From: an uncultured Geobacter sp.
Lineage (GTDB): Bacteria > Desulfobacterota > Desulfuromonadia > Geobacterales > CAIOGM01
Assembly: GCA_903857795.1 (NCBI GenBank)
Contig: CAIOGM010000159.1
Location: 5,458 to 69,457 of the forward strand
Length of the DNA stretch: 64,000 nucleotides
Reading direction: 5' to 3'
The notes under the pieces are model-generated. The model worked only from the letters and a program-made list of their open reading frames with translations, was not told the origin of the DNA and did no database searches. Of the stretch, positions 14,440 to 47,978 are shown one piece after another (positions within the stretch are counted from its first letter, which is position 1; each line of letters opens with the position of its first letter). A program made the position numbers and the translations under genes.

Positions 14440-17259
<2,820 letters not shown>

Positions 17260-21360: not shown

Positions 21361-21383
21361 ACACATTGAACTATGAACTCACG

Positions 21384-21766: not shown

Positions 21767-21795
21767 GAATTTTTTTACTCCCCGGGCATTATCGA

Positions 21796-22830: not shown

Positions 22831-22856
22831 CGGTGGTTGTCCTCTTCCTGCTTACA

Positions 22857-24392: not shown

Positions 24393-24496
24393 CTTGGTAT
24401 CCGTTATCGGGTTTCAGCCGGAGAGGCCGTTGAAAATGAGAAAGACGCTCTCCCCGGTTGAGGAGAGGGGGCGTTTTTGCGCATGTCGGCGGCGCG

Positions 24497-31087: not shown

Positions 31088-32620
31088 TCAGCTCTCCCGC
31101 GTCTGCTGGCGTTGTTCGCTGAGCAGGGGGATCCCCAGTTTTTTCATCCGGAAGAAGAGGGTGTTGGGGTTGAGTCCGAGGATGCGGGCGGCCCCTTTTT
31201 CGCCGTGTACCCGCCAGTTGGTTCCCCCCAGTACGGCGGTGATATGCTGCTGTTCCACCTCCTGCAGCGACAGGGTCAACGGATCCTGACGGCGCTGCGG
31301 CCCCTCTGGCAGGATGACCTGGAGGGTGTCGCCGCTGCTGAAAATCAGGGAGTGTTCGATGCAGTTGCGGAGTTCCCGGATGTTGCCGGGCCACGGGTAG
31401 CGTTGCAGCGCCTCCATGTCGCGGGGATTGATCTTGCAGACGGTGCGCCCCATCTTTTCTCCCACGGTTCTGACGAAGAAGCACACCAGTAGGGGGATGT
31501 CTTCACTCCGTTCCCGCAGCAGGGGGAGTTTGATGGGAAAGACGTTGAGCCGATAGAAGAGATCCTCGCGGAACCGCCCCTGACGGACCTCCTGGGCCAG
31601 GTCACGATTGGTGGCGGCGATGACCCGAACATCGGTTTGGTGGGTCTTCGGGCTGCCGAGCCGCTCGAACTGCCCCTCCTGCAGGACGCGCAGCAGCTTT
31701 GCCTGGGCGATGAGGGGGAGCTCCCCCACTTCGTCGAGAAAGAGGGTGGAGCCATCGGCCAGTTCAAAATGACCGATCTGCTGGGCGACCGCACCGGTAA
31801 AGGCCCCCTTCTCCCGACCGAACAGCTCGCTCTCCAGCAGGTTTTCCGGAATGGCCGCACAGTTTATCTTGTGCATCACCCGCTCGCTTCGCCTGCTGTT
31901 CCGGTGGATGCAGTTGGCTATCAACTCCTTGCCGGTGCCGGTCTCCCCCTGGATGAGCACCGTGCTGTCGGTGGGGGCTACCCGCTCGGCCAGCATGAGC
32001 ACCCTGTTGAGCGCCTCGCTGGCGCCGATGATCATCCCCGGGTCCATGTGGGTCAGGACTTCGGCGCGGAGATGGATGTTTTCCGTTTCAAGATTCTGTT
32101 TGAGCCGGGTGATCTCGTCCAGTTGCCGCTGTAGCTGCTCCGTCTGGAGCTGGACCTGTAGCGTAAGGCGGCTGTTCCAGTGGGCCAGCTCATCGTTCTG
32201 CTCTTTGATGGTGGCGGCGAGTCGCCGGTTCTCCCGTGTGAGGCTGTAGCTCTGCAGGGTGTCGCGGACGATGAGGAGGATGTCGTGGTCTTCCCACGGC
32301 TTGCAGATGATCCTGCTCACCCCTCCCTGATTGACGGCGCCCATGGTGCTCTGGAGGTCGGCATAACCGGTCAGGAGGATCCGGGGGGTCTGGGGGGTGA
32401 TGGCCGCCGCCGCTGACAGAAATGCCGTGCCGGTCATTTCCGGCATCCGCTGGTCGCTGAGAATCAGACCGAAGTTCCCCCCGGCCTGGAGGATGGCCAG
32501 CCCCTCCGTACCCGAGGTGGTCGTCACTACCCGGAACGACTCCTTCCTGAAGAGGCGCTTCAACGCCTTGAGAATGTCTTCCTCGTCATCCACGCAGAGG
32601 ACGGTGAGCGGTTCGTCCAT
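31088..32620 (-). CDS. Sigma-54-dependent response regulator (REC, coiled coil, AAA+ with GAFTGA, Fis-type HTH)
   Basis: It has Walker A GETGTGKE, GAFTGA (EKGAFTGA), WPGNIRELRN and a C-terminal HTH. The receiver belongs to the same paralogue family as the two small regulators. A GGAG RBS favours the Met at 32620, although the track ORF starts at 32659. Confidence 0.9.
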   Translation of the reverse strand: MDEPLTVLCVDDEEDILKALKRLFRKESFRVVTTTSGTEGLAILQAGGNFGLILSDQRMPEMTGTAFLSAAAAITPQTPRILLTGYADLQSTMGAVNQGGVSRIICKPWEDHDILLIVRDTLQSYSLTRENRRLAATIKEQNDELAHWNSRLTLQVQLQTEQLQRQLDEITRLKQNLETENIHLRAEVLTHMDPGMIIGASEALNRVLMLAERVAPTDSTVLIQGETGTGKELIANCIHRNSRRSERVMHKINCAAIPENLLESELFGREKGAFTGAVAQQIGHFELADGSTLFLDEVGELPLIAQAKLLRVLQEGQFERLGSPKTHQTDVRVIAATNRDLAQEVRQGRFREDLFYRLNVFPIKLPLLRERSEDIPLLVCFFVRTVGEKMGRTVCKINPRDMEALQRYPWPGNIRELRNCIEHSLIFSSGDTLQVILPEGPQRRQDPLTLSLQEVEQQHITAVLGGTNWRVHGEKGAARILGLNPNTLFFRMKKLGIPLLSEQRQQTRES

Positions 32621-32723
32621 GGGGGAATTCTCCGGCTGGCAGGTGGGGTAGGGTAACATGAGAGATTGGGTACGGGTATTTCACGGATGTATGCAGTACC
32701 CGGAGACGTACTGTAGCACATAG

Positions 32724-32783: not shown

Positions 32784-33395
32784 TCAGTCGCTCCAGAGGA
32801 TGGTCTGGGAGGTTACGTCGAGTTGGTGCCTGAACCGTCCGAGGAAGTTCATGCCGAGCCATCCATCGAAGGGGAGTGGCGGTCCGGTCACCGGGAGGAT
32901 GCCGACGTCGATGTCGTGGAGGGTCTTCGGGCCGACGGTGAGGGTCTCCAGGGTCGTCTGTCGGGACGGAACGTTCCTCCCGTCGGCCACTTGGGTCAAT
33001 CCCCGGGTGATCTCCTCCGCCGGTATGCCGAGCCTCTCCGCAAGGCTCTCGGAGATGATCGTGATCGAGGCGCCCGTGTCCAGGAGGAAGCGGCAGTTCA
33101 CGGTTCTGCCGCGATGGCTGGCGGTCACCGCCAGGTAGACCCTGTTGTCGGATACCGTTACGCTGCTGCTCGTGGCTCTCGGCTCACGACCTTCGGCAGT
33201 CGTCCGCACTCGTGTCCGGCTACGGTAGCGGTCGGGAATCTTCCCCGCTTCATCCACGAAGACCAGCGTGCCGTCACTGTCGGTATAGTGAAAACAGTCG
33301 GCGACAGCCGACCCGCCATGGGACAGGTTCGGCAGCGAAAGCATGCTAACCAGCTGTATGGCTGCGGCGTACTGCAGTACCGGTATCATGCTCAT
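32784..33395 (-). CDS. Secreted retropepsin-like (clan AA, TIGR02281-type) aspartic protease, copy A
   Basis: 203 aa with an N-terminal hydrophobic signal or anchor. A DUF4124-like segment (FHYTDSDGTLVFVDEAGKIP) is followed by the single catalytic motif FLLDTGAS and the C-terminal LGMNFL motif. The start overlaps the stop of the upstream giant gene (ATGA). Confidence 0.75.
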   Translation of the reverse strand: MSMIPVLQYAAAIQLVSMLSLPNLSHGGSAVADCFHYTDSDGTLVFVDEAGKIPDRYRSRTRVRTTAEGREPRATSSSVTVSDNRVYLAVTASHRGRTVNCRFLLDTGASITIISESLAERLGIPAEEITRGLTQVADGRNVPSRQTTLETLTVGPKTLHDIDVGILPVTGPPLPFDGWLGMNFLGRFRHQLDVTSQTILWSD

Positions 33396-36300
33396 CTCTC
33401 CTGGACGTGGACGATCTTTTTTACCGGACGGTTACCGCTGCGGGTGATGAGAAGCGGCGAGTCGCCCGGCGGTTTACCCTGCAGGGCCGTACCGATCCGC
33501 CGCTCTTCCTTGTCGGTGAATATGGAGACGTTCTGGCCGGGACTCCCCGAACTGAGATTGATCTGTTCGAACGCTCCGGTGGACATCTGTATCAGGGCTT
33601 TCCCCTGAAGTGACCCGGGGGGGATCTGGTATCCGGTGTTGTAGGCCACTCCCCAGAGATAGGATGTCCCCCCGAAGCCGCAGATGTCGGCGGTGGGTTT
33701 GAACGAGGTAAAAAATACCTGACCATTGGTCAACGCTACCGTGTTGGTGACGATCCGTTCCGCGCCGGTGGTGGATGCCGCCGGATCAAGATTGATATAC
33801 CACCCTTTATCGGTCCCCACCGTCAATGCACTGGTCGCGCCGGTTGACTGATTGGTCAGGTTACTGAACGTAAGGGGGGTATCCTCGCAGGTATCACTGC
33901 TGTTTTTAAGATCATTGGCCGCTGAATAACAGGGTTCCTTGATGCCGAAGATGCCCCTCTGGCCGCTGCTATCATCCACCCCGGTGGCGCCGGAACGGTA
34001 GAAATAACGTCCGGTCCCGAAATAGAGCCAGAGATTTTCATTGTCCTTATTCCGGTTCTGAAGTCGCGCCATGGCCGTGGTCACCGGCCCGATACCGCTG
34101 ATAACCTTGCTGAGCTTCCAGGTGGTTGGATCGATATTTTCATAGGTCATCAGCCGCAGCACCCCGCCGTCGGTCCAACTGTAGGACCCCGAGGAACCGG
34201 CTCTCGCCACGTAACCAAAATAGAGGGCGTCATCCTGGTAATTACCGGGCGAGGAGGAATTCCAGCGGTCCGAGTCGATGGGGCCGCCACTCAACGAACC
34301 CCCGAAACCGTTGGCAATGGTTGAATTGTCTTTCAGAGTGCTGATGGTGGTCACCAGGGTTCCGCTCTCCGCGTCAAGAACAAAAACCTTCAGCGGTTTG
34401 TCTGATTTTCCCATGAACTGGTGATTGGTGGTGTCGATAGGGCCGGTGGGGCCTGAGACGAAGACGGCAAACCACCTGCCGTTCTTGGTTTTGTCGCCGA
34501 CTCTGAGGATCGCCGGACCGTTCATGCTGTAGCCGAGATCAGGGTCGGAGAATTCCCACTTCAACTTAGGGGCTGTCGGATCGGTAACGTCCAGGGCGAA
34601 GTAGGTGGAGTAGCCCAGCCCTTTGGTCCCATCGGCGGGGTCGGTCCGGGGGGTCTTGACGCAATCGGTACAACTGTCACCGGTGATTCGTGTCGCCCCG
34701 CCGAGTCCCATGCCGCCGATGAGGATGCTCTTCCAACTGGCGGCGGTTCTGGTGCAATCCCAGTAGTCGGTGCTCGTGCAGGCGGTAGCCTTGGCGCTGC
34801 TGATGTCGGCGATGACCGGGGTGGCGTCCACGTAATACAGGTGGTTGTACGCCGGGTCGGCGAGGTACTTGAGATAGGGGAGGGCCTGTTTCGGGATGAA
34901 CGCCCACTGCTCCGTCCCCAGGTTGGCGCCACTCAGGGTCGCCTTCACGGCGCCGTGCTGGGTGACATCCATTGTCCCGAGTTTGAAGGCATGGAGCATA
35001 CCGTCATTGGCGCCGGCGAACACCATCCCGCGATTCTTGTAGCTGCTGGTCGAGAAGAACGAGGTATAGGTTGAATCGTTATATCCTGCCGGTTTGAGCA
35101 GATGGTAATTGTTGACCGGCAAACCCGATTCAATTTTGGGCGTCGAGGAGACAATATCTCCCAGTTTCCAGACGTTGGCCTGAGTGCCGATGTAGGCGTT
35201 GCGGCTCCGGTAGCCGGTTTTATCCGTCCCCAGGAGATAATTGATGATGTCCGAGGCCTCGGCGCCGCTGGCGGCCTGCAGATATGACTGGATTTTGGTG
35301 TTATTGGCGGCGGTGAACCCCATGAAGCCGTTGGTGCAGGTCGCGGTGGGGAGACAACTGGTGTACACGGTGCGGTCTGCCGGGGCGGTGGACCAGAGGA
35401 GCGCTCCTGCCCGCCAGAGGGCCTGAACATCCTCAGGGTAGGCGAAACCGTCGGAACTGTCACCGACACCGTCACCGTTGGTGTCCTTGATAAATTCAAC
35501 CTTGGTCTGATTCACACTGGGATTACTGTCAAAAAAGAAGCGGACGATCCGGTCCGTGGCCAGATTCAAGAGATGGCTTCCCGAAGTATATCCCGTGTCT
35601 TCCCGGATGGTGCTGTTGCCGATGAACGGATCGATATAGTACCAGAGGTTCAGCAACTCTCCGCTCCAGGTCACCGTGGAGGTGGTACTGCTGCCGAAGA
35701 TCTTGGAGGGGTAAAAGATTGCCTGGATAAGGTTGGCGCCGGTCCCTTCGCTGTTGCTGAGAATCGAGGCGGCAGTACCCGAGGCGACCCTCTTGAGAAT
35801 GTCGGTTAACGCCTTGTTCAGCTGCTGTTCCATCTGCAAGGGGTTGGAGATCAGATAATAGGTATCCGGGTCACCGCTGTTTTGGGAATCCCATTCATGG
35901 CACCCGCTTGCCGGAGTCGCGGTTCCGCAACTGCTGTCGGTATAAGGAACTCCGTCGCCGTTGATATCGTTGAATGCCCCATACTTGGCGGCGAACCAGA
36001 GGGGATTCTTGGGGAGTGTCCCTCCTGTGCCGTCGGGAGTGAAGATCATGGCGCGGGTTTCAGGGAGTTGCCTGATGGTCGCACTCTGGGAGCAGTAGCC
36101 GTGTTCGGTATAGTGTAAGGGGGTGCAATCAGTCGGATTGTTCCATTTTCTGACAGGGAGATACAGCCCATCGGTTGTCGTCCCCGCCACCACGAAGCCG
36201 ATGGCCGCATCATTGCCGGCGGAAGAGTATTTGGACTCCACTGTTACCCTGACCCTGCCGTTGGGCACATCCGGACAATGTCCCGCTGAGCATTCCGTTG

Positions 36301-38575
36301 ACGTGCAATAGTTGTAATTGTTGGTTCCACAGCTCTTCCGGGGACAACTTGCCCCCTCACAGACCTCATATTCCGCCAGGGTATCCATGTCGTAGTCCCC
36401 CCCGCCGATGTCGTCGGAACTGATCCTGAACCGGACATATTTCATCAATCCCGTCGCGGTATCGTACAGCGGATCGCCGAGGATATAGTAACTCACCATC
36501 TGTAAGCGTGGGCAGGCGCCGGTGGACGTCCCGGACGGAGTAAGAACCAGCCCTTTTGAGGGAGTATTGACCGAGGTATCCGGTTGCGTAGTCGGCGAGA
36601 GAGACTGGGTGTACTGACCGGAGCAGTTCCAGGTGATGCCGTTTACCGTGCCGTTTGCCATGGATTGTCCGGTGGGAATAATCGTCATCGTGCTGGATCC
36701 GGCCTTGATTTTCAGCTCCGGGACGTACGAGGGGAACGGGAGGGAATAGAACGTCACATTGGGCTTGCCGGGAAGTTCCGTCGAGATCTTGGTATGGCCG
36801 TAAAAGGCCATGGCTGCCGGCGAAAAACTCCCCTGCTCGTCCGGTTCGGCAGGGCATAAGCCCCGGCTGCTCCCCAGCTTGCCGGTACTGCTGAAGGTTT
36901 TTTTCGTGCAGAAGGTGTCGGAATTGACCCCCTTGACCTCTCCGATCATGGCGGTTGTCAACGCTTCATTGGTTCCGATGGTGTTGGTGAGGGCCTTGAC
37001 ATTGAGGTGTGGCAGGTCGTTGGTCGTAGTGGCGGCGATTGTGCCGAAATCCGAGCCGGGAATCTGGTCGGAGTCGTAACTGTTGTAAATGTCACTGAAG
37101 AGGAGCACGAACGGCTTTGAACATGAAGGGAAATTTGTCAGAGGAGTATCCCAGGAGGGAGCGGGCAGATTGAGGTCGTTATCGTTGCCCAGCGTGCTGC
37201 TTCCGGTCGACCCATTGGTGATTCCTGTTGAGAAGGCCGTGGTGGCGCTCCCTAACCCGACAATGTAGCGCAGCGACTCGTAGATGATTTCACCCATGGG
37301 GTTCCCCCAGTGAGTCGGCAGGGGGTAGCTCAAGGGGCAGCGGAAGTTTTCCAGAGTTCCGATGATATTCCCCTTGGCATTGAGGGTGTTGTCGAAGAGT
37401 CCGGTGGAGTTGTTGATCTCATCGAGCACGCTGCTGATCTGTTTCCGCAGGACACCGCCTGCCTGCGGGTTTTTGTACGAGCCGGTGAGCAGGCCAAAGT
37501 ACATGCTGGAACGGTCAAGACAGACGCCAATCGCCGTGCCGCCGTTGTTGGCGGCGTTACAGTCGGTATCGGAAGTGCAGCTTTTATTCAACGTCTTTGA
37601 ACAGACTTTTGTCCCGTCGGATGTGCCGAATTTTTGCAGGATCCCCACTGGTTTGTAGTTTGCCCCGTACTGTTGGCATTTACCCGGCACCGGCTCAAGG
37701 TAGCTGCTATCGCATACCTTGACACTGACCTCATAGTCAACGCTGGAAAAAGTTACCGATTCGGCCACCCCGTCGTTGTTATTGTCGATCTTGTTGGTGG
37801 CGCAGATGGTGTCGGCGCCGTCCACTGATGCCCAGTGCCAGGGGCGCAAGGGGAATATCGCGTTACCGTTTGAGACATCGGCAGTGGTTATCGTGCCGGG
37901 ATCGGCGACGACTCTGATCAAGCTCCTGGGGGAAGAGCTGCTGTCGTTGGTGGTCACGCAAAACAGGCTTCGTTTCCCGGAAACGGCACTGGGGAACAGC
38001 TTGCGCTGGTCCGCCGGCGCCGGAGTTTTTGCCATATCCTCATACCGGGGATACTCCTTCCCCCAGCTGTGACCGTCGCGAGGGATCTGTTCCCCGCTGA
38101 GGATGGTGCTGGTAGCCGTATCGGTTGTCCTGCTGCCACCATAGAGAACCCGCCGGACAACGTCCATCCGGGTCATGGAGAGCCAGTTGAGAAAATTGCC
38201 GGCCCACTCGCTGCTGGTGCCGGAACAGTATTTGTCGGTGGTGAGGCTGGTCGGAGAAAACAGTTTGTTGGAACTGCTGTAGGTGTAACATTTGTACGGG
38301 TCGAAATAGCCGTAGTAATCGATGCCGTGCTTGTACCCTACGTCCAGTTGCCCGTCATCGTTCAGATCAGAGGCGTCATTGTATGCGGCATAGTACATTT
38401 TATGGTCCTTGCTCATGCTCAGGAGGACCAGCGGCGGGATTGTCTGGGTAATGAACGGCGGTTGTATGCAGTAGTCGTTCATCACCGCCGCCCATGCCGG
38501 TGTGCAATGCACGGCAGCCAACACCACGGTCAGTCCGCACACTATTCTGAAGATCGTCTGCACTCTCTTGTTCAT
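33392..38575 (-). CDS. Giant secreted PilY1/PilC-like protein, copy A (degenerate vWA-like N-domain plus C-terminal beta-propeller)
   Basis: 1727 aa with a signal peptide ending TPAWA. PilY1 N-terminal block: PPLVLLSMSKDHKMYYAAYNDASDLNDDGQLD...YYGYFDPYKCY and GNFLNWLSMTRMDVVRRVLYGG. C-terminal PilY1 hallmarks: VFAGANDGMLHAFKLG, EQWAFIP, ILIGGMGLGG, YFALDVTDP, LWLYFGTGRYF and GERIVTN. It also has a DTNGDGVGD Ca-loop-like motif. Confidence 0.8.
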   Translation of the reverse strand: MNKRVQTIFRIVCGLTVVLAAVHCTPAWAAVMNDYCIQPPFITQTIPPLVLLSMSKDHKMYYAAYNDASDLNDDGQLDVGYKHGIDYYGYFDPYKCYTYSSSNKLFSPTSLTTDKYCSGTSSEWAGNFLNWLSMTRMDVVRRVLYGGSRTTDTATSTILSGEQIPRDGHSWGKEYPRYEDMAKTPAPADQRKLFPSAVSGKRSLFCVTTNDSSSSPRSLIRVVADPGTITTADVSNGNAIFPLRPWHWASVDGADTICATNKIDNNNDGVAESVTFSSVDYEVSVKVCDSSYLEPVPGKCQQYGANYKPVGILQKFGTSDGTKVCSKTLNKSCTSDTDCNAANNGGTAIGVCLDRSSMYFGLLTGSYKNPQAGGVLRKQISSVLDEINNSTGLFDNTLNAKGNIIGTLENFRCPLSYPLPTHWGNPMGEIIYESLRYIVGLGSATTAFSTGITNGSTGSSTLGNDNDLNLPAPSWDTPLTNFPSCSKPFVLLFSDIYNSYDSDQIPGSDFGTIAATTTNDLPHLNVKALTNTIGTNEALTTAMIGEVKGVNSDTFCTKKTFSSTGKLGSSRGLCPAEPDEQGSFSPAAMAFYGHTKISTELPGKPNVTFYSLPFPSYVPELKIKAGSSTMTIIPTGQSMANGTVNGITWNCSGQYTQSLSPTTQPDTSVNTPSKGLVLTPSGTSTGACPRLQMVSYYILGDPLYDTATGLMKYVRFRISSDDIGGGDYDMDTLAEYEVCEGASCPRKSCGTNNYNYCTSTECSAGHCPDVPNGRVRVTVESKYSSAGNDAAIGFVVAGTTTDGLYLPVRKWNNPTDCTPLHYTEHGYCSQSATIRQLPETRAMIFTPDGTGGTLPKNPLWFAAKYGAFNDINGDGVPYTDSSCGTATPASGCHEWDSQNSGDPDTYYLISNPLQMEQQLNKALTDILKRVASGTAASILSNSEGTGANLIQAIFYPSKIFGSSTTSTVTWSGELLNLWYYIDPFIGNSTIREDTGYTSGSHLLNLATDRIVRFFFDSNPSVNQTKVEFIKDTNGDGVGDSSDGFAYPEDVQALWRAGALLWSTAPADRTVYTSCLPTATCTNGFMGFTAANNTKIQSYLQAASGAEASDIINYLLGTDKTGYRSRNAYIGTQANVWKLGDIVSSTPKIESGLPVNNYHLLKPAGYNDSTYTSFFSTSSYKNRGMVFAGANDGMLHAFKLGTMDVTQHGAVKATLSGANLGTEQWAFIPKQALPYLKYLADPAYNHLYYVDATPVIADISSAKATACTSTDYWDCTRTAASWKSILIGGMGLGGATRITGDSCTDCVKTPRTDPADGTKGLGYSTYFALDVTDPTAPKLKWEFSDPDLGYSMNGPAILRVGDKTKNGRWFAVFVSGPTGPIDTTNHQFMGKSDKPLKVFVLDAESGTLVTTISTLKDNSTIANGFGGSLSGGPIDSDRWNSSSPGNYQDDALYFGYVARAGSSGSYSWTDGGVLRLMTYENIDPTTWKLSKVISGIGPVTTAMARLQNRNKDNENLWLYFGTGRYFYRSGATGVDDSSGQRGIFGIKEPCYSAANDLKNSSDTCEDTPLTFSNLTNQSTGATSALTVGTDKGWYINLDPAASTTGAERIVTNTVALTNGQVFFTSFKPTADICGFGGTSYLWGVAYNTGYQIPPGSLQGKALIQMSTGAFEQINLSSGSPGQNVSIFTDKEERRIGTALQGKPPGDSPLLITRSGNRPVKKIVHVQER

Positions 38576-38640
38576 GGGATACCTCTTGGATGATGATTGT
38601 CTTCATGGTGGCCGATTTTTCACTATGCGTGGATCTGTGT

Positions 38641-38673
38641 AATATTTGAATAATTAAAAATTATTCAAATATT
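38641..38673. promoter_or_regulatory. Perfect 15-3-15 palindrome AATATTTGAATAATT-aaa-AATTATTCAAATATT upstream of PilY1-like gene A
   Basis: Both arms were read and reverse-complemented by hand and match exactly. It lies 66-98 nt upstream of the start codon. The sequence is certain; an operator function is inferred. Confidence 0.6.
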
Positions 38674-38679
38674 ATGCCA
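38664..38679 (-). promoter_or_regulatory. Sigma-54-like promoter with a non-canonical -12 element (TGGCAT-N5-TTGAA)
   Basis: The minus strand reads tTGGCATaatatTTGAAt. The GG-N10 spacing is right but the -12 dinucleotide is GA rather than GC. It overlaps the right arm of the palindrome. Confidence 0.3.
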
Positions 38680-38943
38680 AATGTAATTTTGCTATGAAAA
38701 TAACCACCAAAATTCTGGTAATTCTGGAGAAAATGTATAAAAATCAGCCTGTCAGATCGTGTCACCCCCCCCCGGCCAAAATGAGTCGGTCTCGAGCAGT
38801 CCTGGGACGCTCCGGGGTAAACCGGTCATTTCTTGCAGGGTGACACCGCTCTCTGACTCCATGGCTCAACATTCCTGGCAGGGGAGGCCGGGTGATGGTC
38901 AGGGCGCCGGGAGTTGTTGCAGGGGGAAGGGCGGGGGTCGAAG

Positions 38944-38988
38944 GGAGAAAAGCAACGGCGCGCTCCCGAAAAGGGGAGCGCGCCGTTG
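38944..38988 (-). terminator. Strong terminator after protease B, separating the two cassettes
   Basis: A perfect 15-bp stem pairs CAACGGCGCGCTCCC with GGGAGCGCGCCGTTG around a 6-nt loop. CTTTTCTCC follows on the minus strand. Confidence 0.7.
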
Positions 38989-39086
38989 TTGTGGGCGGTA
39001 GAGGGAGGGAGGCGGAGTCACCGCTCCTGGATATGCAGGACTTTTTTTACCTTAGCGCCGTCATTAGTTTGCAGGATGGTTTTTCG

Positions 39087-39698
39087 TCACTCGCTCCAGA
39101 GGATGGTCTGGGTGTTTACGTCGAGCTGGTGCCTGAACTGTCCGAGAAAGTTCATGCCGAGCCACCCCTCGAAGGGGAGTGGCGGGCCGGTCACCCGGAG
39201 GATGCCGACGTCGATGTCGTGGAGTGTCTTCGGGCCGACCGTGAGCGTATCCAGAGTTGTGCGTCGTGATTGAATATTTCTTCCATCGGCTACCCGGGTC
39301 AACCCCTGCGTGGTCTCCTCTGTTGGTATCCCGAGTTTCTCCGCGAGGCTCTCCGAGATGATCGTGACCGAGGCGCCCGTGTCCAGAAGGAACCGGCAGT
39401 TCACGGTTTTGCCGCGATGTCTGACGGTTACCGTCAGATAGACCTTGTTGTCGGACACTATTACTCCGCTGCGCGTGGCTCTTGACTCCGGAGCTTTGTC
39501 GGCCGGTCTCACTGTTGTCCGGCTACGGTAGTGGACGGGAACCTTGCCGGCTTCATCAACGAAGACCAGCGTGCCGTTACTGTCCGTATATTGAAACACT
39601 TCGGCAAAAGCCGACCCGCTAATCAACAGGTTCAGCAGAGAAAGCATGATAACCAACTGCACCGACCTGGTGTACTGGGGAACCGGTATCATTCTCAT
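39087..39698 (-). CDS. Secreted retropepsin-like aspartic protease, copy B
   Basis: 203 aa, about 75 percent identical to copy A by hand count and higher in the C-terminal protease domain. It has the same FLLDTGAS and LGMNFL motifs and the same ATGA overlap with the upstream giant gene. Confidence 0.75.
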   Translation of the reverse strand: MRMIPVPQYTRSVQLVIMLSLLNLLISGSAFAEVFQYTDSNGTLVFVDEAGKVPVHYRSRTTVRPADKAPESRATRSGVIVSDNKVYLTVTVRHRGKTVNCRFLLDTGASVTIISESLAEKLGIPTEETTQGLTRVADGRNIQSRRTTLDTLTVGPKTLHDIDVGILRVTGPPLPFEGWLGMNFLGQFRHQLDVNTQTILWSE

Positions 39699-42600
39699 CT
39701 TTCCTGGATATGAAGGACCTTCTTCACCGGTTGATTCTGGCTTCGATTAATGATGGTCGGCGGGTCGGCGGGTGGTTTCCCTTGCATCGCGGTCCCTGTC
39801 CGACGGCTTTCTCTCGCAGAGAATGGAGTGCTTGACGGGTTGCTCGGATCATTAAACTGAGTTGACTCGAAACTTCCTGTTGACATTTGAATGATGGCCT
39901 TGCCGTACATCGACGCGCTTGATGGCACAAATCCTGTATCGTATTTCAACGCCCACAGGTAGGAATTACCTCCATACGCGCAGATATCCGATGACGGAAG
40001 AAAGGTGGTGAAAAATACCGCTCCTGTGGATAGCGCAACCGGATTGGTGATTACCCTCTCGGCACAGGAACTGCCAGCGGCCGCATCCAAGGTAATGAAC
40101 CAGCCTTTATCCTTGAGGGTGTCCAAGCTGTTTGTGGAGGCAGTTGTATAGCCTACTCCTGATTGGTTGGTTAGTTTTGTGGAGTCAACCGTGGTGGTGC
40201 AGGTAGTGTCTATAGCATTGGCAGAAGTATAGCACGGCTCCTTGATTCCAAAAATGTTGCGCTGAGTGGCGCAATCGTCAAGGTCCCCGGCAGCGGTCGT
40301 CTTGAAATAATAACGACCGGTCCCGAAATAGAGCCAAAAGTGCTTATTTTTACGGTCTTGCAACCGTGCAATGGATGAGGTTACCGGCCCGATACCATCT
40401 ATAACAATACTTGTCACAAAATCGTTCGAGCTTACATTAAATGTCCCTGTCTGAATAGTGGAAGGATCAGCGGTGCTTGGCTTTATCATTACGCGGAGCA
40501 CCCCGCCATCGGTCCAAGTGTCATCCGAAGTATTCTGTTTAACATACCCAATATAGACCACATCGTCCTGGTAGTTTCCGAGTAAGGACAAATTCCACCG
40601 GTCGGCATCCAGGGCGCCTCCTTGGAGTGAACCGGCGAATGCATTAGGAATCCCCGTATTGATCGTCTGAACCAGTGAACCATCCTTGAGATCGACGATG
40701 AACAGCCGCAGGGGTTGATCCGACTTGGCCAGGAACTGGTGTGTCGTCGTGTCAATGGGGCCTGTGGGACCAGAGGCAAACAAGGCTAACCAGCGGCCGT
40801 TCTTATTCCGAGGCCCCACCCTGATGATTGCCGGTCCCGCGGTAGAATACCCTAGCCGGTTATTGGTGAATTCCCAGAGGAGTGCCGGTTGCCCCGGTTT
40901 GGTTATGTCTAGCGCAAAATATGAAGAATATCCCATGCTTACTGAATTGTTAGCCGGGTCAACAATTGGAGTTCTGACACAATTTGTGCATCCCGCAGAA
41001 CTTCTCCTGCTGGCCCCTCCCAAACCCATTCCGCCGATTAAAACGGTCCGCCAGTTGGTTTCGACTGCGAGATCGTTGGGGTTAACGGGATTTACGGCAC
41101 TGCTGCCTACCACTTGACTGCTGTTTTTGCTGCAGTCCCAGTAATGCGTGCAGGTACCCACGGTACCAATGCTGACATCGGCAATGGTGCTGGTCAGGTC
41201 GACGAAATTAAGATGACCATAAGAAGGGTCGGCGAGGTATTTGAGGTACGGAAGGACATTCCGGGGGATATAGGCCCACTGCTCACTTCCCAGATTACTG
41301 CCGCTAAGAGTCGCCTTCTGGGCGCCGCTGGCCGTGACATCGAGCAGCCCGAGTTTGAACGCGTGGAGCATGCCGTCATTGGCGCCAACGAACACAGAAC
41401 CACGGGCCTTGTACTCATTGGAATTGATAAAAGAGTAATACGAGGAGTCATTGTACCCCGACGGAGGCTGCATATGATAGTTGTTCTGAGGTACAGTCGA
41501 GAGGACCCGAGGTGTCGATGTCACAATGTCGCCAAGTTTCCAGACACCACTAGTGCTGCCGATGGTGACGGTGCGGTTGCGCAGCGTGGCGTCACCAGGA
41601 TAATCAATTCCACTGATGTAATTGATCAACTGCTTGGCGCTGGTCACGTCCGACGCCTGAAGATACCGTCGAAGGTCTGTCGCGGTAGCGTCTGAACTGT
41701 CAGCAGTGTCGGTTGGACTGAAAAAGGTGCGCAGTGTGCCGGATGTATTCGTGTAAATGGTACGTTTTTGGGTGTTATCGGTCTGATCGCGCTTCCAGAG
41801 AAGTGTGCCGGCCTTCCAGAGGCTCTTGACGGTTTCGGGATAATCGGTTCTTATCAGGGTCTCGCCGATGCCGTCTCCGTTGGTGTCCTGGAAGAGTTTT
41901 ACCCTGGTAGCCTTCATGGAGGTATCAAAGAAGAAGTTTACAATATAGTCATTGGTCAGGTTCAAGTTATGGGTGGCCGCCCCGGTGGCGTCAGAATAAT
42001 CCGTGTCCTCGCGAATAGAACTGGTGTTAATGTATGGATCGAGGTAGTACCAGAAATTCAGGAGTTCGCCGGTCCAGTTCGCAACCGTATTGTTGGAAAA
42101 GACTTTTTTGGGATAGAAGATCGCCTGGAGAATGACGGCTCCGCTTCCCTCGGCGTTACTCAGAATGGAGGCGGCAGTTCCGGATGAAAGCTGGTTGAGG
42201 ATATTGTTGAAGATATCGATGAGAGAATTGTTGAGCTGTGTCGGGTTGTCCGCATAATAGGCTTGGCCGTTTCTGTCAGTGCCGCCATGGACAGCCATGG
42301 CATCCACGTTTGTCTTGTCGGCAGCTACCAGTCCCACACCCAGAATATAGGACGTTACATCGTAGTTTATAGAATTAACCGTTACATTGCAATTTCCAGA
42401 TCCCCCGTTGGGCGGGCATCGCAGAGCGTCAAGCTTGGTCAGGACCGTAGGCATAAGGTCGGTTGATGCTCCGGTCGCGCCGCTTTCGGTGACACTGGGC
42501 GCTCCGTCGGTAACGTAGATAATGAAATTCTTTTGGCAGGAATACTGGATGGGTGAGGCGAGGGGGGTGGTGCTTCCCTGAACCATGGCGCCTTTGAAGT

Positions 42601-45112
42601 AGTTGAGGGCGCTCTGAAGTGTCCCGGCGGTGGGGGTCAGGCCGGCATTGATGATGTAGCTGCAGGCGTTCGGGTTCGATGTGTTGGTGCATGACATGTA
42701 CCCGGTTTCATCGTTCTGGAAAGCAACCGGCGTCCGATTCCCCCCCAGGGAGGTCAAGAGTGAAGTCAATTGGGTATTCCCAGGGGAGACGTTATCAGCT
42801 ATCGGCACATTCAAATATCCGCCACCAGGCGAACTGTTGGTAAAAAAGGTCTGACTGGTATAATACCAACTATTCCTAACCCCAAAATCGTAGAATCCAA
42901 GAGCATAGTCATCATCTGTGGGAATAAAGCCCTGCGGACCAGTGCATCCGGCGAATCCGGTGGTCGCGTCGTTTGCGCCGGTCTTGCTGGTACAGGTATA
43001 ATAAGAGTCGGTTTGAGCTGGATATTCAGTAGAACTGTACCCGCTTGAGTAGGTATAACTTATTCCATGGTTCGAGCTGTCATAGTACGTCCCCGGCATG
43101 CCATAGTAGGTCGTAGTTCCGTTGGTATCTGTATTCTTGCGCGTCTTCGGGTAGATAAGCGAGCAGTATGTCTTGCGCTTGGCGCTGTTGACCGCAGTTC
43201 CGTTAGACCCTCCCGTACCGCCCGTCGTGGTTATTGCATCCCGGTAATTGACCTGAAATGCCGGATTCCCGGCAGCCACACCCGAAATTCCGTTTTGACA
43301 TGAATTTCTGCAGGCAATTTCAGCGGCGGAAGGGGAATAGGTTCCGGTCTTTGGATCTTCTTGAACACAGTAGTTGGAGCATGACCCGTCCGATGGGGGA
43401 GTCGGGCAGTATGATTTCAGATCGAACGAGTTGAAATACGCGGAATTGTGCAGGAAGTACTTGGATACCGAAGGAAGTTTGTAGCTCATGATGCCGATGC
43501 GCATGATGTTGCCGTAGGCGTTCACGATGGACGTGAGGGCCTGCCGGGCGATGATCGACCTGCTGCAGGTATTGAGATCGTTAGGATCGGTGCACTTTGG
43601 TGAACCGATGGCGTTGTTTTGGAAATCTTCATCCATGCTGTTGGAATTGTCGAGGATGATGAGCACGTTCGGTTTCACGTTGGTACAGACATAGGGCGGC
43701 ACCACCGTGTAGGTATTCAGTGACGCTACCTGGGTGGTGAAGCTGAAACTGTATTGTCCAAGGGCGTTTCCTGCCAGATCCGTAACTCCACTGGTCAGGG
43801 TGACGGTGTAGGGCATGCTGAAGTCGAGACCGGTAGCCGGAGTAAGCGTTAGTTTTTTTGCCGTTGAATCATAGGAAATGCTTGCAGGTATGTTTTGTGA
43901 TCCGTCGGATATGTATACCGTGGCGCTATTCATGGACGAGGCGAGCATATTGTTCAGTTCGGTGAAGTTTATAGTGATAGGCGATGTTATCGAGATGTCC
44001 GAGGTATTATTTGCAGGCGAGGTGCTTGCCACCACGGGGGCTACAGTGTCCAGAATGAATGACCATGAATGGCTCATATCGAGGGCATTCGGGGTGGGGC
44101 TTGCCGCGTCCTTGATGCCGGTGGTCAGGGTGATGTTGTAGGCGCCGTCAGTGAAGGCCGCTGTTGGTGTAAATGACTCGGTATTGGAACCGGCATCGAA
44201 GCTGTAGGCGCCTGCTACCGCGGTTGTAACTTTTTTGACCGAAAAGGTGCTGCTGGTTATAGTTGTCGTAGTGATGGTATCGCTGAAGGTGGCCGTTATG
44301 GCGTTCGGTATGGTATTTAGATAGGCGGTGTTAGGCGAAAACGACACGAGGGTCACTGGCTGGTTGTCGACATTGAACATCCACGTACAAGAGTAGTTGA
44401 CGCAATCAAGTGCGTTGCTGCTCGTATCGGTCAGACCGGCCGTGAGGGTCACTCGGTATGTTTTCAGGGATGCGAGGGCTGATGACGGTGTCACGGTTAC
44501 CGTTTTGTTCGAATTCGACCAGACAGGGGCATTGAGAGGCACCGGGATATTGCCGTCGGTCACATTGATCAGATTAATTGAAGGATTTGAACCTGATACT
44601 GTGGCTGAGCTTGTATTCATGGCTTCGAAAAAGGTTGGTGCAATATTAGGTGAGGTGCTCGATGTTGTTGTCACTAGTGGGACATACGATACCATGTACG
44701 GTGGCTTATAGTCGCGAATGGTAAAAGTAAACGTTGACGGGCCGGTATAAGTACCTGCGGTAGGTGTTGCTTTATCTTTTATGCTTTTTGCACAGGCCGA
44801 GTACTGGGTGCCGGATGACAAGCTCGCGGTTGGTGTGATGGTTATGGTTTTCGCAACGGAATCACAGCCGATACTTACCGACCCGAAGACCGTCCCTCCG
44901 CTGCAACTGGAACCGCTGGTTATAAAGATATTGGTTCCGCTCGCACTAGTGCAGTCAAGTGCGGTTGCAGAGGTAAAGCTCACTGTATGTGGACCAAGCT
45001 CATTCACTCCAGTGGTTGTATTTGGTGTCCAGACCGGCGAAGATGGCGCCCCTAAAGCTGTACCGGAATGAAAAAAGAACAGACAGCCGACTGCCAGCAG
45101 TATTCGTTTCAT
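39695..45112 (-). CDS. Giant secreted PilY1/PilC-like protein, copy B (about 5 SbsA/Big-type Ig-like repeats, vWA with an intact MIDAS, beta-propeller)
   Basis: 1805 aa with a signal peptide ending TALGAPS. Residues ~25-460 hold repeated Ig-like units (for example TVTPSSALASLKTYRVTLTAGLTDTSSNAL). KPNVLIILDNSNSMDED is a DxSxS MIDAS at residues 488-492. PilY1 hallmarks are VFVGANDGMLHAFKLG, EQWAYIP, LIGGMGLGG, YFALDITKP, FWLYFGTGRYY and AERVITN. Confidence 0.8.
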   Translation of the reverse strand: MKRILLAVGCLFFFHSGTALGAPSSPVWTPNTTTGVNELGPHTVSFTSATALDCTSASGTNIFITSGSSCSGGTVFGSVSIGCDSVAKTITITPTASLSSGTQYSACAKSIKDKATPTAGTYTGPSTFTFTIRDYKPPYMVSYVPLVTTTSSTSPNIAPTFFEAMNTSSATVSGSNPSINLINVTDGNIPVPLNAPVWSNSNKTVTVTPSSALASLKTYRVTLTAGLTDTSSNALDCVNYSCTWMFNVDNQPVTLVSFSPNTAYLNTIPNAITATFSDTITTTTITSSTFSVKKVTTAVAGAYSFDAGSNTESFTPTAAFTDGAYNITLTTGIKDAASPTPNALDMSHSWSFILDTVAPVVASTSPANNTSDISITSPITINFTELNNMLASSMNSATVYISDGSQNIPASISYDSTAKKLTLTPATGLDFSMPYTVTLTSGVTDLAGNALGQYSFSFTTQVASLNTYTVVPPYVCTNVKPNVLIILDNSNSMDEDFQNNAIGSPKCTDPNDLNTCSRSIIARQALTSIVNAYGNIMRIGIMSYKLPSVSKYFLHNSAYFNSFDLKSYCPTPPSDGSCSNYCVQEDPKTGTYSPSAAEIACRNSCQNGISGVAAGNPAFQVNYRDAITTTGGTGGSNGTAVNSAKRKTYCSLIYPKTRKNTDTNGTTTYYGMPGTYYDSSNHGISYTYSSGYSSTEYPAQTDSYYTCTSKTGANDATTGFAGCTGPQGFIPTDDDYALGFYDFGVRNSWYYTSQTFFTNSSPGGGYLNVPIADNVSPGNTQLTSLLTSLGGNRTPVAFQNDETGYMSCTNTSNPNACSYIINAGLTPTAGTLQSALNYFKGAMVQGSTTPLASPIQYSCQKNFIIYVTDGAPSVTESGATGASTDLMPTVLTKLDALRCPPNGGSGNCNVTVNSINYDVTSYILGVGLVAADKTNVDAMAVHGGTDRNGQAYYADNPTQLNNSLIDIFNNILNQLSSGTAASILSNAEGSGAVILQAIFYPKKVFSNNTVANWTGELLNFWYYLDPYINTSSIREDTDYSDATGAATHNLNLTNDYIVNFFFDTSMKATRVKLFQDTNGDGIGETLIRTDYPETVKSLWKAGTLLWKRDQTDNTQKRTIYTNTSGTLRTFFSPTDTADSSDATATDLRRYLQASDVTSAKQLINYISGIDYPGDATLRNRTVTIGSTSGVWKLGDIVTSTPRVLSTVPQNNYHMQPPSGYNDSSYYSFINSNEYKARGSVFVGANDGMLHAFKLGLLDVTASGAQKATLSGSNLGSEQWAYIPRNVLPYLKYLADPSYGHLNFVDLTSTIADVSIGTVGTCTHYWDCSKNSSQVVGSSAVNPVNPNDLAVETNWRTVLIGGMGLGGASRRSSAGCTNCVRTPIVDPANNSVSMGYSSYFALDITKPGQPALLWEFTNNRLGYSTAGPAIIRVGPRNKNGRWLALFASGPTGPIDTTTHQFLAKSDQPLRLFIVDLKDGSLVQTINTGIPNAFAGSLQGGALDADRWNLSLLGNYQDDVVYIGYVKQNTSDDTWTDGGVLRVMIKPSTADPSTIQTGTFNVSSNDFVTSIVIDGIGPVTSSIARLQDRKNKHFWLYFGTGRYYFKTTAAGDLDDCATQRNIFGIKEPCYTSANAIDTTCTTTVDSTKLTNQSGVGYTTASTNSLDTLKDKGWFITLDAAAGSSCAERVITNPVALSTGAVFFTTFLPSSDICAYGGNSYLWALKYDTGFVPSSASMYGKAIIQMSTGSFESTQFNDPSNPSSTPFSARESRRTGTAMQGKPPADPPTIINRSQNQPVKKVLHIQER

Positions 45113-45465
45113 CGCCCTACCTCCAGCACATCAATCTCGACGACCAAGCCCTTGATGGTTGTTATCCTGACTGGTGTCTTTTCGGGGAGCTTTGAGACAT
45201 CGATCCTTTTTCCGTTGTACTCCACGGTAACGGCAGATTGAATCCGATAGAATCTGACTCCGCCCTGTTCTGACAACAACAGAACAAATGTGGCTCCATT
45301 ACGGATTCCTCCAAAAAAACCGTTACTTATTTCCCCCTGGTCTGTATGGCTCAGTGCGCCTGAAGTTGCCGGAGTCATCCCTATGGCAAACATCGGACAG
45401 GCTGCCACCAAGCAAGAGGTAATGATTGCGGCTCTAACGAGTTGAGTTATCGAAATAGATGCCAT
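45109..45465 (-). CDS. Small secreted protein of unknown function, first gene of cassette B
   Basis: 118 aa from the Met at 45465, preceded by an AAAGGAG RBS. A signal-like segment (AAIITSCLVAACPMFAIG) precedes a beta-rich C-terminus. Its stop overlaps the giant gene start (ATGA). The longer track ORF would overlap the kinase gene. Confidence 0.6.
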   Translation of the reverse strand: MASISITQLVRAAIITSCLVAACPMFAIGMTPATSGALSHTDQGEISNGFFGGIRNGATFVLLLSEQGGVRFYRIQSAVTVEYNGKRIDVSKLPEKTPVRITTIKGLVVEIDVLEVGR

Positions 45466-45489
45466 GCCGGATACTCCTTTATTATTGCT

Positions 45490-45505
45490 TGCAAGTGGAC
45501 AGCCT
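45490..45505 (-). promoter_or_regulatory. Candidate sigma-54 promoter (AGGCTG-N5-TTGCA) overlapping the kinase stop codon
   Basis: The minus strand reads tAGGCTGtccacTTGCAag with exact GG-N10-GC spacing. The predicted transcript would begin just upstream of the Shine-Dalgarno of the small ORF. Confidence 0.4.
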
Positions 45506-47750
45506 ATTGATGTTCGCTTACGCTGCGTGCGCCGAGCAGGTTCCCGATTATCTCGGTGAGCTGGCGGAGCCGGATCGGTTTGCTCACAAAAGCGTCGGCG
45601 CCGGCCGCCAGGCAACGCTCCCGCTCCTCCGGCGAAGCCTGGGCGGTGAGGGCGATGAGGGGGATTTCCCCGGCAGGGGAGGGGAGCTCCCTGATCCGCC
45701 GGATCGCCTCGATGCCGCTCATGCCGGGCATCCGGATATCCATGAGGACCAGCGCCGGCAGCTCACGTTCGGTGAGAGCCACGGCTTCATCTCCAGAACC
45801 GGCGCCGATGATCCGGTACCCTTCACCCTGCAGATAGCTCGCCACCATGTCGAAGGCGACCTGGTTGTCTTCGGCCAGGAGGATGAGTCGGGAACGGGAA
45901 ACGGTGACTGCTGACGCGGGAGCGGCGACCGGTGACTGGTTATTGGTGACTGGGGTGCGGCAGGTGGCGGTAGTTCCCTCCGCCTGCAAGGGGATGGTCA
46001 CCGTGAAACAGCTCCCCTCGGCGGGCCGGCTCGCCACGGTCACGCTCCCGTGATGCAGGGCGGTCAGTTGCGCCACCAGGGCGAGCCCCAGGCCGGTCCC
46101 TTCATGGCGGCGGGAGAGGCTGTCATCCACCTGGGTGAAGGGGTGGAAGAGCTCCTGCTGCTGCGCCTCGCCGATCCCGATGCCGCTGTCTCTGACCGCG
46201 AACCGCACCCCGCCTCCGGCAGGGTCACCGGTCACCTCCAGCTGGACACTCCCCCCCCGGGGGGTGAACTTGACGGCATTGTCCAAAAGATTCAGGAGGA
46301 TCTGTTTCATCCGCCGGCGGTCGGCGCGAAACAGTCGGGGCGCCTCCGTGCTCCCGCTGATGAGGGTGATTCCCTTGGCCGCCGCGGGAGCGGTCATGTA
46401 ACCGATGCACTCCTCGCAGAGCTCCTGCAGGGAGATCTCTTCGAGGAAGAGCTCCATCTTGTTCGCTTCGATCTTGGAGATATCCAGGATGTCGTTGATG
46501 AGGGAGAGGAGATGCTCCCCGCTGCCGTGGATGCTCTGCAGCGCCGCCGACTGCTCATCGGTGAGCGGGCCCCTGAGCCGCGCCAGGAGCGATTCTGACA
46601 GGCCGAGGATGGCGTTGAGCGGCGTCCGGAGCTCATGGGTCATGGTGGCGAGAAAGCGGCTCTTGGCACGGGTGGCGCTCTCCGCCTCCTGACGCGCCTG
46701 TTTCAGGAAGCCCATGGCGCCGTTGATGCTCCGGGCCAGGTTGTTCAGCTCTGCTCCGTCCGGTTCGGTCAGCAGGGTGTCGGGTTGGGTGAAGTCCAGG
46801 CAAGAGACCTTGCCGCTCAGGCTCTTCAGGGGGAGGAGCACGGTCCGGTTGAGCAGGAGCAGCATGGTGGTGATGAGCAGGGCGCCTACGCCGAAAAGGG
46901 CCCAGACGAAGTAGCCGGTGACCCGTCGCCCTTCGGCGGTGAAGCTTCTGGCCGCCGTCATCCGGACCGCGAATCTCTCTCCGGTCAGGATATCGGCCGC
47001 CAGGGAATACCCTTCGATCTCCTGCTCGCTGCTGAACCGTTCCAGCTGTCTCTTCCCCGGGGGGAGACGCAGCAGCAGTTCCCTGGTGGCGGCCGGGATC
47101 CGTCGGTCCGTGAGCGGCATGAGCTGAAACGGCTGGGAGACGGTCTTTCCCAGCTCCTGCAGCTCCGCCTCTTCCAGCTCATTGGCGAACACCAGCATCC
47201 CCCGGGACGGACCCTGCGCCTTGGAGGTGAGGACCGGATGGGTCGACGCCACATAGAAGGTCCCCCCCAGCCGGAAGAGTCCCGAGGTCGCCTCAACCGT
47301 CCCCTTCCGGCTGCCCAGTGTCGCCAGCTCTTTCAGCTTCTCCAGGAGGAGAGGAGAGAGCCGCCGCCTGCTCTGATCGGAAAAAGTATAGGAGCAGGCG
47401 TAGCGAGGCCGTCCGTCGGGGAGCATGAACAGGAGGTGCTCGATGTCATAGACCTTGAAATAGCTGGGGCTCAGATCGATGGTGATGAATTTGGAGGCGC
47501 CGGTTTTCATGAAATCGTACGCGTCATCCCAGTCCGCCCAGTCCACGACCCATTTCCCCAGGTCACGCTGTTTCTGCTCCAGGAGATAGGTGACGATCTT
47601 GAGCCGGTCGGAGAGTTGCCGGCTCTCCAGGGGGGAGACCTCGGAGATGATGATGCTGCGGGTGATGAGGAAGACCAGCAGGAGCGATCCCGCCAGGATC
47701 AGGATGGTGAGAAGCAGGGTCTTCTGTCTGATAGTCATTTTCGAACTCAT
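45504..47750 (-). CDS. Hybrid sensor histidine kinase: TM, CHASE4-like domain, TM, HisKA, HATPase, REC, without HPt
   Basis: 748 aa. The periplasmic part contains VVDWADWDDAYDFM, which is CHASE4-like. The H-box is THELRTPLNAI, the G-boxes are DSGIGI and GTGLGLAL, and the C-terminal receiver has LVLMDIRMPGMSG. The protein ends right after the receiver. Confidence 0.85.
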   Translation of the reverse strand: MSSKMTIRQKTLLLTILILAGSLLLVFLITRSIIISEVSPLESRQLSDRLKIVTYLLEQKQRDLGKWVVDWADWDDAYDFMKTGASKFITIDLSPSYFKVYDIEHLLFMLPDGRPRYACSYTFSDQSRRRLSPLLLEKLKELATLGSRKGTVEATSGLFRLGGTFYVASTHPVLTSKAQGPSRGMLVFANELEEAELQELGKTVSQPFQLMPLTDRRIPAATRELLLRLPPGKRQLERFSSEQEIEGYSLAADILTGERFAVRMTAARSFTAEGRRVTGYFVWALFGVGALLITTMLLLLNRTVLLPLKSLSGKVSCLDFTQPDTLLTEPDGAELNNLARSINGAMGFLKQARQEAESATRAKSRFLATMTHELRTPLNAILGLSESLLARLRGPLTDEQSAALQSIHGSGEHLLSLINDILDISKIEANKMELFLEEISLQELCEECIGYMTAPAAAKGITLISGSTEAPRLFRADRRRMKQILLNLLDNAVKFTPRGGSVQLEVTGDPAGGGVRFAVRDSGIGIGEAQQQELFHPFTQVDDSLSRRHEGTGLGLALVAQLTALHHGSVTVASRPAEGSCFTVTIPLQAEGTTATCRTPVTNNQSPVAAPASAVTVSRSRLILLAEDNQVAFDMVASYLQGEGYRIIGAGSGDEAVALTERELPALVLMDIRMPGMSGIEAIRRIRELPSPAGEIPLIALTAQASPEERERCLAAGADAFVSKPIRLRQLTEIIGNLLGARSVSEHQ

Positions 47751-47776: not shown

Positions 47777-47792
47777 ATTCAATATCCGTGCC
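47777..47792 (-). promoter_or_regulatory. Sigma-54-like element (GGCAC-N-TTGAAT) upstream of the CHASE4 kinase gene
   Basis: The minus strand reads cGGCACggataTTGAATac. It has GG-N10-GA, the same deviant TTGAAT -12 element as at 38664-38679. Confidence 0.3.
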
Positions 47793-47927: not shown

Positions 47928-47978
47928 ATGGTCACTTTTTGCGGGGCGGAAGTTACTCAAGAAACAGGAGGTGATCTC

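Follow-up and report, generated by a model that had tools for sequence, protein, structure and literature searches.

PilY1 sets what a type IV pilus adheres to and senses, and how alternative PilY1 proteins are swapped, matured and disposed of is poorly understood. Here we describe a locus of an uncultured Geobacter sp. in which each of two giant PilY1 genes is followed directly by a gene for a small retropepsin-type aspartic protease. The locus lies on the minus strand, at about 31-50 kb, of a stretch of 64,000 nt from contig CAIOGM010000159.1 (the window), and its two units are called A (nearer 33 kb) and B (nearer 45 kb). Among the described systems, Myxococcus xanthus with PilY1.1, PilY1.2 and PilY1.3 resembles the window in having several paralogs with differing N-terminal adhesin modules and in being controlled by a hybrid kinase and an NtrC-type activator, HsfBA, which set the PilY1 paralog that is made (PMC9109919). 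It also has a paralog-specific periplasmic accessory, namely, TfcP, which serves PilY1.1 (PMC8833165). However, each Myxococcus PilY1 has its own set of minor pilins whereas the units in the window are without pilins, and the accessory in Myxococcus is a cytochrome c that promotes calcium binding whereas that in the window is a protease. The Neisseria proteins PilC1 and PilC2 are, as is the pair in the window, two paralogous tip adhesins whose genes lie apart from the minor-pilin operon. Unlike the window pair, they have no downstream protease, are controlled by phase variation and are much smaller. PilC is the neisserial equivalent of PilY1 (PMC10191384).

The proteases also have described counterparts. 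The closest solved fold is that of APRc (RC1339) from Rickettsia which, like the window proteases, is a single-lobe bacterial retropepsin of the envelope. APRc reportedly cleaves giant adhesins of the cell surface in vitro (PMC4140852), while its role in adhesin maturation in vivo is disputed (PMC10414592). It differs from the window proteases in that it is membrane-embedded, lacks DUF4124 and is only about 20% identical to them. PerP of Caulobacter, as cited in a paper on APRc (PMC4140852), is a periplasmic protease of the retropepsin type that is dedicated to a single envelope substrate, the polarity factor PodJ. PerP is of the DTGA type of clan AA and is TIGR02281-like, whereas the window proteases fall under the TIGR02281 cutoff. 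PodJ is linked to pilus biogenesis, and the gene of PerP is not known to be adjacent to that of its substrate. RloA of P. aeruginosa is, like the window proteases, a signal-peptide-bearing retropepsin-like peptidase and has envelope and biofilm phenotypes (PMC12239564). Finally, TfpC of N. gonorrhoeae is a periplasmic DUF4124 protein that is required for type IV pili (PMC7593972). In TfpC, as in the window proteases, a signal peptide is followed by the DUF4124 motif, but TfpC ends in a coiled coil and not in a protease, and the likeness is limited to about 50 residues. It is already known that PilY1/PilC genes can be orphans or come in several paralogs, that two-component systems control them and that individual paralogs can have periplasmic helpers such as TfcP, and the secreted or envelope retropepsins APRc, PerP and RloA are known as well. 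The parts are ordinary, and it is the combination of PilY1 with a retropepsin that is unusual and lineage-restricted. An earlier reading of this stretch, made from its sequence alone (the original prediction), knew of no description of this pairing, and our literature search likewise found no report of a retropepsin wired behind PilY1.

The five open reading frames (ORFs) that had been placed in the two units were all confirmed in position. PilY1-A (33392..38575, minus strand) has 1727 aa with a PF28373 N-domain and a propeller, and PilY1-B (39695..45112, minus strand) has 1805 aa with a signal peptide, four Big_5 domains, a vWA-type N-domain and a PilY1 propeller. Both giants pass the Pfam cutoff for T4P_PilY1 of 28.1 bits (38.3 bits for PilY1-A and 32.3 bits for PilY1-B), and a family profile built from 22 members matched the C-terminal domain of P. 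aeruginosa PilY1 (PDB 3HX6) with an E of 8.5e-31. The assignment to PilY1 is thus upheld, and the motifs quoted for it, GANDGMLHAFKLG, EQWA.IP, IGGMGLGG, YFALD, LYFGTGRY and AERI/VxTN, are present. The protein P0115, which is identical to PilY1-A, carries precomputed matches to PF28373 ('PilY1_homolog_dom', a recent Pfam family) and to PF05567. PilY1-A is a full-length paralog of the Geobacterales-type PilY1; it has 1791 homologs, is 44-47% identical over 100% of its length to operon-encoded PilY1 proteins, and has its best named homologs, in which PF28373 is present too, in Geobacter, Oryzomonas, Desulfuromonadaceae, Nitrospirota and Deferribacteres.

PilY1-A and PilY1-B have only their C-terminal 870 aa or so in common, at 50% identity, and their N-terminal halves are unrelated. 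The N-terminus of PilY1-B consists of four Big_5 Ig-like domains (Pfam, E 3e-41), in agreement with the Big domains that had been foreseen. The region that follows, aa 441-960, has 285 homologs, most of which are the N-termini of ordinary PilY1 proteins of about 1150 aa. The vWA domain that had also been foreseen fared less well because it was not significant in PilY1-B itself (E 0.27), and its support comes through homologs of this middle region, some of which give weak or borderline VWA matches. Judged by these domains, PilY1-B is a mosaic, a standard vWA-plus-propeller PilY1 that apparently gained four Big_5 domains on its N-terminal side. Both giants have Sec signal peptides by inspection (AWA-AV and ALG-AP). 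Candidate calcium-binding EF-hand-like loops, possible equivalents of the P. aeruginosa sites, are DTNGDGVGD in PilY1-A and DTNGDGIGE in PilY1-B.

Protease A (32784..33395, minus strand) and protease B (39087..39698, minus strand), each of 203 aa, have the same architecture, that is, a signal peptide, a DUF4124-like module and a single-lobe retropepsin with DTGAS, and are 75% identical. Both score well over the Pfam cutoff of 24.3 bits for Asp_protease_2 (PF13650), with 69.5 and 70.5 bits for A and B, respectively (E about 1e-19). The catalytic D106-T-G-A-S motif is invariant in 30 homologs, and the motifs FLLDTGAS and LGMNFL that had been quoted are found in both proteases. When the AF2 model of protease B (pLDDT 89.3) was used in Foldseek, the best match was Rickettsia APRc (5c9f; E 9e-7, TM(target) 0.71), followed by the Ddi1 RVP and HIV-1 protease. 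The Pfam scores and the retropepsin fold bear out the assignment to clan AA. Single-sequence searches of PilY1-A and of the protease against PDB sequences were uninformative, and profile and fold searches were required. The match to TIGR02281 (clan_AA_DTGA) that had been expected did not reach the NCBIfam cutoff of 57.95 bits, the scores being 37.9 and 44.5 bits; by the curated threshold the proteases are related to this family and not members of it.

The original prediction had taken the overlap ATGA between the PilY1 stop and the protease start as a sign of translational coupling. The overlap is there at both window junctions, but the conserved start of the protease is the second ATG (codon 3), which lies 2 nt after the PilY1 stop in the window and 2-5 nt after it across relatives. 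We place the start there because in a related locus, L001, the PilY1 stop is TAG and the first protease ATG is absent, and because the spacing of the Shine-Dalgarno sequence AGGA(A/G)AG, which lies inside the last PilY1 codons, suits the second ATG. The probable true starts are therefore 39692 for protease B and 33389 for protease A, and the gene callers also chose a product of 201 aa. Since its Shine-Dalgarno sequence lies in the last codons of PilY1, the protease is tightly, and probably translationally, coupled to PilY1, while the ATGA overlap itself is incidental. In the related loci L173/L174 the pairing is intact, and the order is kinase, small ORF, PilY1-B (86% aa identity), protease and then a convergent gene. 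L001 is a deletion derivative of the order in L174, in which the kinase is truncated and runs into what is left of PilY1-B, its last 159 codons, with the protease intact behind them. Altogether the junction occurs four times (in both window units, in L174 and in L001), with two PilY1 types (50% identical) and two allele groups of the protease (about 60% identical), and it is on this recurrence that the case for a functional link between the two genes chiefly rests.

Two genes for enhancer-binding proteins flank the PilY1 locus. Unit B opens with a hybrid histidine kinase (45504..47750, minus strand; CHASE4-HisKA-HATPase-receiver by Pfam), and divergent from this kinase operon is a PilR-like sigma-54-dependent response regulator (47928..49397, plus strand; Pfam Response_reg, Sigma54_activat and HTH_8). 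The same hybrid kinase is 5' of PilY1 in L173/L174 and in another related locus, L005, and it is the gene that is truncated in L001. The upstream regulator shares 42-45% identity with PilR from canonical PilY1 loci, as against 33% with an unrelated NtrC-type regulator, and 78% with its equivalent in L173. A second sigma-54-dependent response regulator (31088..32659, minus strand; Pfam) lies 125 nt 3' of protease A, and a terminator scan found no minus-strand terminator in this gap. The pattern GGCAY-N5-TTGAA has only two sites in the window, where 0.18 are expected, and both are at the predicted promoter positions of the PilY1 units: GGCACGGATATTGAA (47778..47792, minus strand), with the kinase start about 30 nt downstream, and TGGCATAATATTTGAA (38664..38679, minus strand), with PilY1-A about 90 nt downstream. 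L173 has a similar site, GGCATGCTTTTTGAG, at the same place (about 6567-6581). The pattern that covers these sites, GGCAY-N5-TTGA(A/G), may be a variant sigma-54 promoter. Unit B is closed by a strong intrinsic terminator (38953..38988, minus strand) with a 15-bp stem, 12 GC pairs and a T-run, and between it and PilY1-A there is an AT-rich promoter region of about 370 nt. Because of this terminator and promoter region, units A and B are two separate transcription units and not one array.

The explanation that we favor, with a probability of about 0.5, is that PilY1-A and PilY1-B are orphan alternative pilus-tip adhesins under sigma-54/PilR-like control and that a co-expressed periplasmic DUF4124-retropepsin acts on a component of the pilus. 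PilY1-A is a full-length copy of the PilY1 that is usual in Geobacter-like pilSR-pilY1-minor-pilin-pilMNOPQ clusters. It and PilY1-B would be made on demand as alternative tip adhesins and be loaded onto a priming complex of minor pilins, the genes of which would be at another place in the genome. The adjacent CHASE4 hybrid kinase and the PilR-like activators would switch on the sigma-54-type promoters, as HsfBA does for PilY1.1 and PilY1.3 of Myxococcus. The protease, co-transcribed with PilY1 and exported to the periplasm, would work as a homodimer and would either trim or mature the PilY1 made with it or dispose of PilY1 that is resident or unassembled, which would let the tips be re-equipped, and the DUF4124 module could dock it at the pilus machine. 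A protease with a TfpC-type DUF4124 behind two PilY1 genes is a candidate for post-translational control of the pilus tip in Geobacter-like bacteria, where pili matter in attachment and biofilms, and a function is suggested for two poorly understood families, the bacterial single-lobe retropepsins and DUF4124. A more general version, that DUF4124-retropepsins are pilus-associated periplasmic enzymes docked via DUF4124 and that those in the window are dedicated processing or turnover proteases for alternative PilY1s, is in our view doubtful. If it were true, no earlier protease with PilY1 as its substrate would be known, and cells would have a means to re-equip pilus tips.

Several observations weigh against the favored explanation. 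We surveyed the best 80 of more than 585 PilY1 loci, in species-representative genomes with 10-kb flanks, and the best 80 metagenomic protease loci; L088-L090 are from the same organism as the window (99.96-100% identity) and were left out as independent evidence. A co-oriented downstream retropepsin was found at none of the 80 PilY1 loci, and a PilY1 beside the protease at none of the 80 metagenomic protease loci. Homologs of the protease at 45-49% identity stand alone in unrelated contexts. In L005 an 81% ortholog of PilY1-A comes directly after the kinase and ends with a TAG stop that is followed by a Phd/PIN toxin-antitoxin pair and no protease, and in L001 the protease is intact despite the deletion of PilY1. 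It is these two loci, L005 without the protease and L001 with it intact, that speak most strongly against a functional link, and since the L001 protease is intact without its PilY1, the protease may act independently of the neighboring adhesin. As for DUF4124, the Pfam match (PF13511) is borderline in protease B (21.3 bits, E 3e-4; cutoff 22) and protease A gave none at E 0.01 or better. The promoter sites are no more than suggestive of sigma-54 control of both units because in both the -12 element is GA, where GC is usual, and because we arrived at the search pattern post hoc. What we infer comprises the role at the pilus tip, control by sigma-54 and whatever the protease does to a substrate, and the presence of a pilus machine is assumed, our view being that of the 64-kb window.

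The original prediction had made its case depend on conserved co-occurrence of the two genes, which was not borne out: the two surveys found none, and the pairing recurs only in close relatives. The pairing is real, but since it is found only in one small lineage, it is a local variant of one small uncultured Geobacter-like lineage and not a widespread system, and the weight of the finding is limited accordingly. The closest protease fragment in the JGI metagenomes (L092 1-360; 66% identity, aa 79-203) is N-terminally truncated, and the sequence upstream of it is without homology to PilY1 and by eye resembles a transposase fragment.

The alternative that survives best is that the protease is a general periplasmic enzyme whose substrates are unrelated to PilY1 and that it was put behind PilY1 by recombination and spread by gene conversion. 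We take this to be a credible, though less favored, explanation. The family members that stand alone elsewhere with no conserved neighbors, the absence of the protease from L005 and its survival in L001 are all what it would lead one to expect, and other secreted bacterial retropepsin-like enzymes such as RloA have general envelope roles (PMC12239564). The history of the locus, with its deletions, its relic of a PilY1 3' end and its mosaic divergence, also fits it. The term 'duplicated cassette' used in the original prediction is misleading, and an ancient duplication of the whole cassette was rejected: synonymous sites are saturated between PilY1-A and PilY1-B, which diverged long ago, whereas proteases A and B differ by a synonymous divergence (dS) of 0.42, with a ratio of nonsynonymous to synonymous divergence (dN/dS) of 0.33, and are recent copies or gene-converted. 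When PilY1-B was compared with its ortholog in L174 (L174 1636-7074), the C-terminal 1200 codons gave a dS of 0.13-0.25, and the N-terminal 580 codons or so, the Big_5 part, gave a dS of >1 with 52-70% aa identity, a pattern that suggests swapping of adhesin modules. Next to the 3' part of PilY1-B, with its low dS, is protease B, for which the dS to the L174 protease is 0.99. Because dS is so uneven along PilY1-B and protease B, the locus is a mosaic in which the N-terminal modules of the adhesin and the protease gene appear each to have been exchanged by recombination; as judged from these values, one breakpoint coincides with the stop codon of PilY1.

A relic of 34 nt from the 3' end of a PilY1 gene (39018..39051, minus strand; it encodes ..AKVKKVLHIQER and a stop) lies in the gap from protease B to the terminator and, together with the true 3' ends of PilY1-A and PilY1-B, makes up the direct-repeat family D4. 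It resembles a scar left by recombination and fits insertion or replacement of the protease gene via the conserved 3' end of PilY1. However, the same comparisons also count against a protease unrelated to PilY1. By the dS values the junction between PilY1 and the protease outlasted the replacement of the protease allele, it is retained at four sites, in each of which the protease start is 2-5 nt from where PilY1 stops and the Shine-Dalgarno sequence falls within PilY1 codons, and DUF4124 has a link to pili.

This link to pili deserves some detail. In the window proteases the signal peptide is followed, much as the original prediction had it, by the DUF4124 motif FQYTDxxGTxVFVD..KVP, more distant members of the protease family carry a precomputed PF13511 match, and the N-terminus of the protease matches a DUF4124 protein in L172 with an E of 3e-8. 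In L172 (4244-4783) a TfpC-like protein of 179 aa, with DUF4124 and a coiled-coil tail, is encoded directly 5' of a canonical PilY1, with a DsbC-like gene on its other side, in a pilSR-pilY1-minor-pilin operon; DsbC/thioredoxin genes also precede PilY1 in Geobacter sp. FeAm09 (L006). In a metagenome-assembled genome of Oceanospirillum (L059 1214-1942, minus strand) a DUF4124-retropepsin gene, detected with the family hidden Markov model (HMM) at an E of 2e-45, is divergent from fimU-pilV-pilW-pilX-pilY1, and Parazoarcus (L060) has a weak retropepsin match (30 bits) in a similar position. DUF4124 beside PilY1 as a general theme was rejected since, with an HMM for DUF4124 alone, no more than 2-3 of about 85 loci proved to have such a gene adjacent to PilY1. 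The links of DUF4124 to pili in TfpC, L172 and Oceanospirillum are hints and not a pattern.

The second alternative is a surface system that is independent of pili, in which the giants would be exported and shown at the surface with no pilus involved, to be released or matured by the protease, as in LapG-LapA or autotransporter processing. As the original prediction had it, there are no pilus genes in the 64 kb; none was found by Pfam scans of the larger ORFs or by a scan for the prepilin N-terminus motif. Its statement that PilY1 is normally encoded with minor pilins also holds, because prepilin-like ORFs are beside PilY1 in 66 of the 80 homolog loci, where the canonical order is PilD-PilS-PilR-(pilin)-PilY1-three minor pilins-PilMNOPQ. 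The lack of pilus genes and the extra Ig-like adhesin domains of PilY1-B would be in keeping with a system of this kind, which the original prediction had raised. On the other hand, the units are without a secretion or anchoring gene, and the regulators are PilR-like. Moreover, the window giants share with the canonical operon-encoded homologs both the propeller and the tail at the very C-terminus, PVKK[IV][LV]H[IV]QE[RK], which makes independence from pili improbable. The neighborhood of minor pilins is typical for PilY1 and not obligatory, and the orphan PilC/PilY1 genes pilC1 and pilC2 of Neisseria are known still to serve pili. In Geomonas sp. Red32 (L024 14625-22562) an orphan PilY1 homolog is followed by an ORF of 2645 aa in place of the minor pilins, and therefore orphan PilY1 genes with other large partners exist in Geobacteraceae.

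All genes of the region are under purifying selection. That the units are decaying remnants, i.e., non-functional duplicates in a recombination hot spot, is most improbable. The deletion in L001, the 34-nt relic after protease B and the low GC content could be so explained, but both giants have kept unbroken ORFs (1727 and 1805 aa), no catalytic or structural motif has been lost, and dN/dS is 0.12-0.18 when the giants are compared with their orthologs and 0.26-0.36 in the case of the proteases.

Unit B also encodes, in front of PilY1-B, a small secreted protein of 118 aa (45109..45465, minus strand) with the ribosome binding site AAAGGAG. Its stop overlaps the PilY1-B start as ATGA, as had been predicted. 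Only three homologs of it were found, all from the same lineage (86% and 72% identity), and its dN/dS is 0.21. It has no Pfam match, and its AF2 model (pLDDT 45) is too poor for use. Kinship with the small ORFs 5' of PilY1 in L008, L022 and L042 is unsupported since a jackhmmer search against the ORFs of all PilY1 loci found nothing. A search of Rfam gave two tRNAs but no riboswitch or other family, whether in the intergenic region or elsewhere in the window.

The GC content of unit B (40000-46000) is 0.52-0.54 as against 0.60-0.65 in the flanks, and the GC skew is strongly positive over 32-46 kb. The drop in GC and the skew are compatible with horizontal acquisition or with a composition specific to adhesins. 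A gene for a Card1-like endonuclease (49641-50810, plus strand) adjoins the PilR-like regulator and is also present in the relative L173; nucleases of the Card1 family are effectors of type III CRISPR systems that are activated by cyclic oligoadenylates, and no CRISPR/cas genes were noticed nearby. Downstream of the PilY1 units there are a periplasmic protein of the phosphonate-binding type and single-domain receivers, and the region from 10755 to 29723 (minus strand) is a dense run of sensor kinases with three giant PAS/GAF hybrid kinases and with MASE1-CHASE and HAMP kinases, a kinase-rich stretch that is typical for Geobacter-like genomes.

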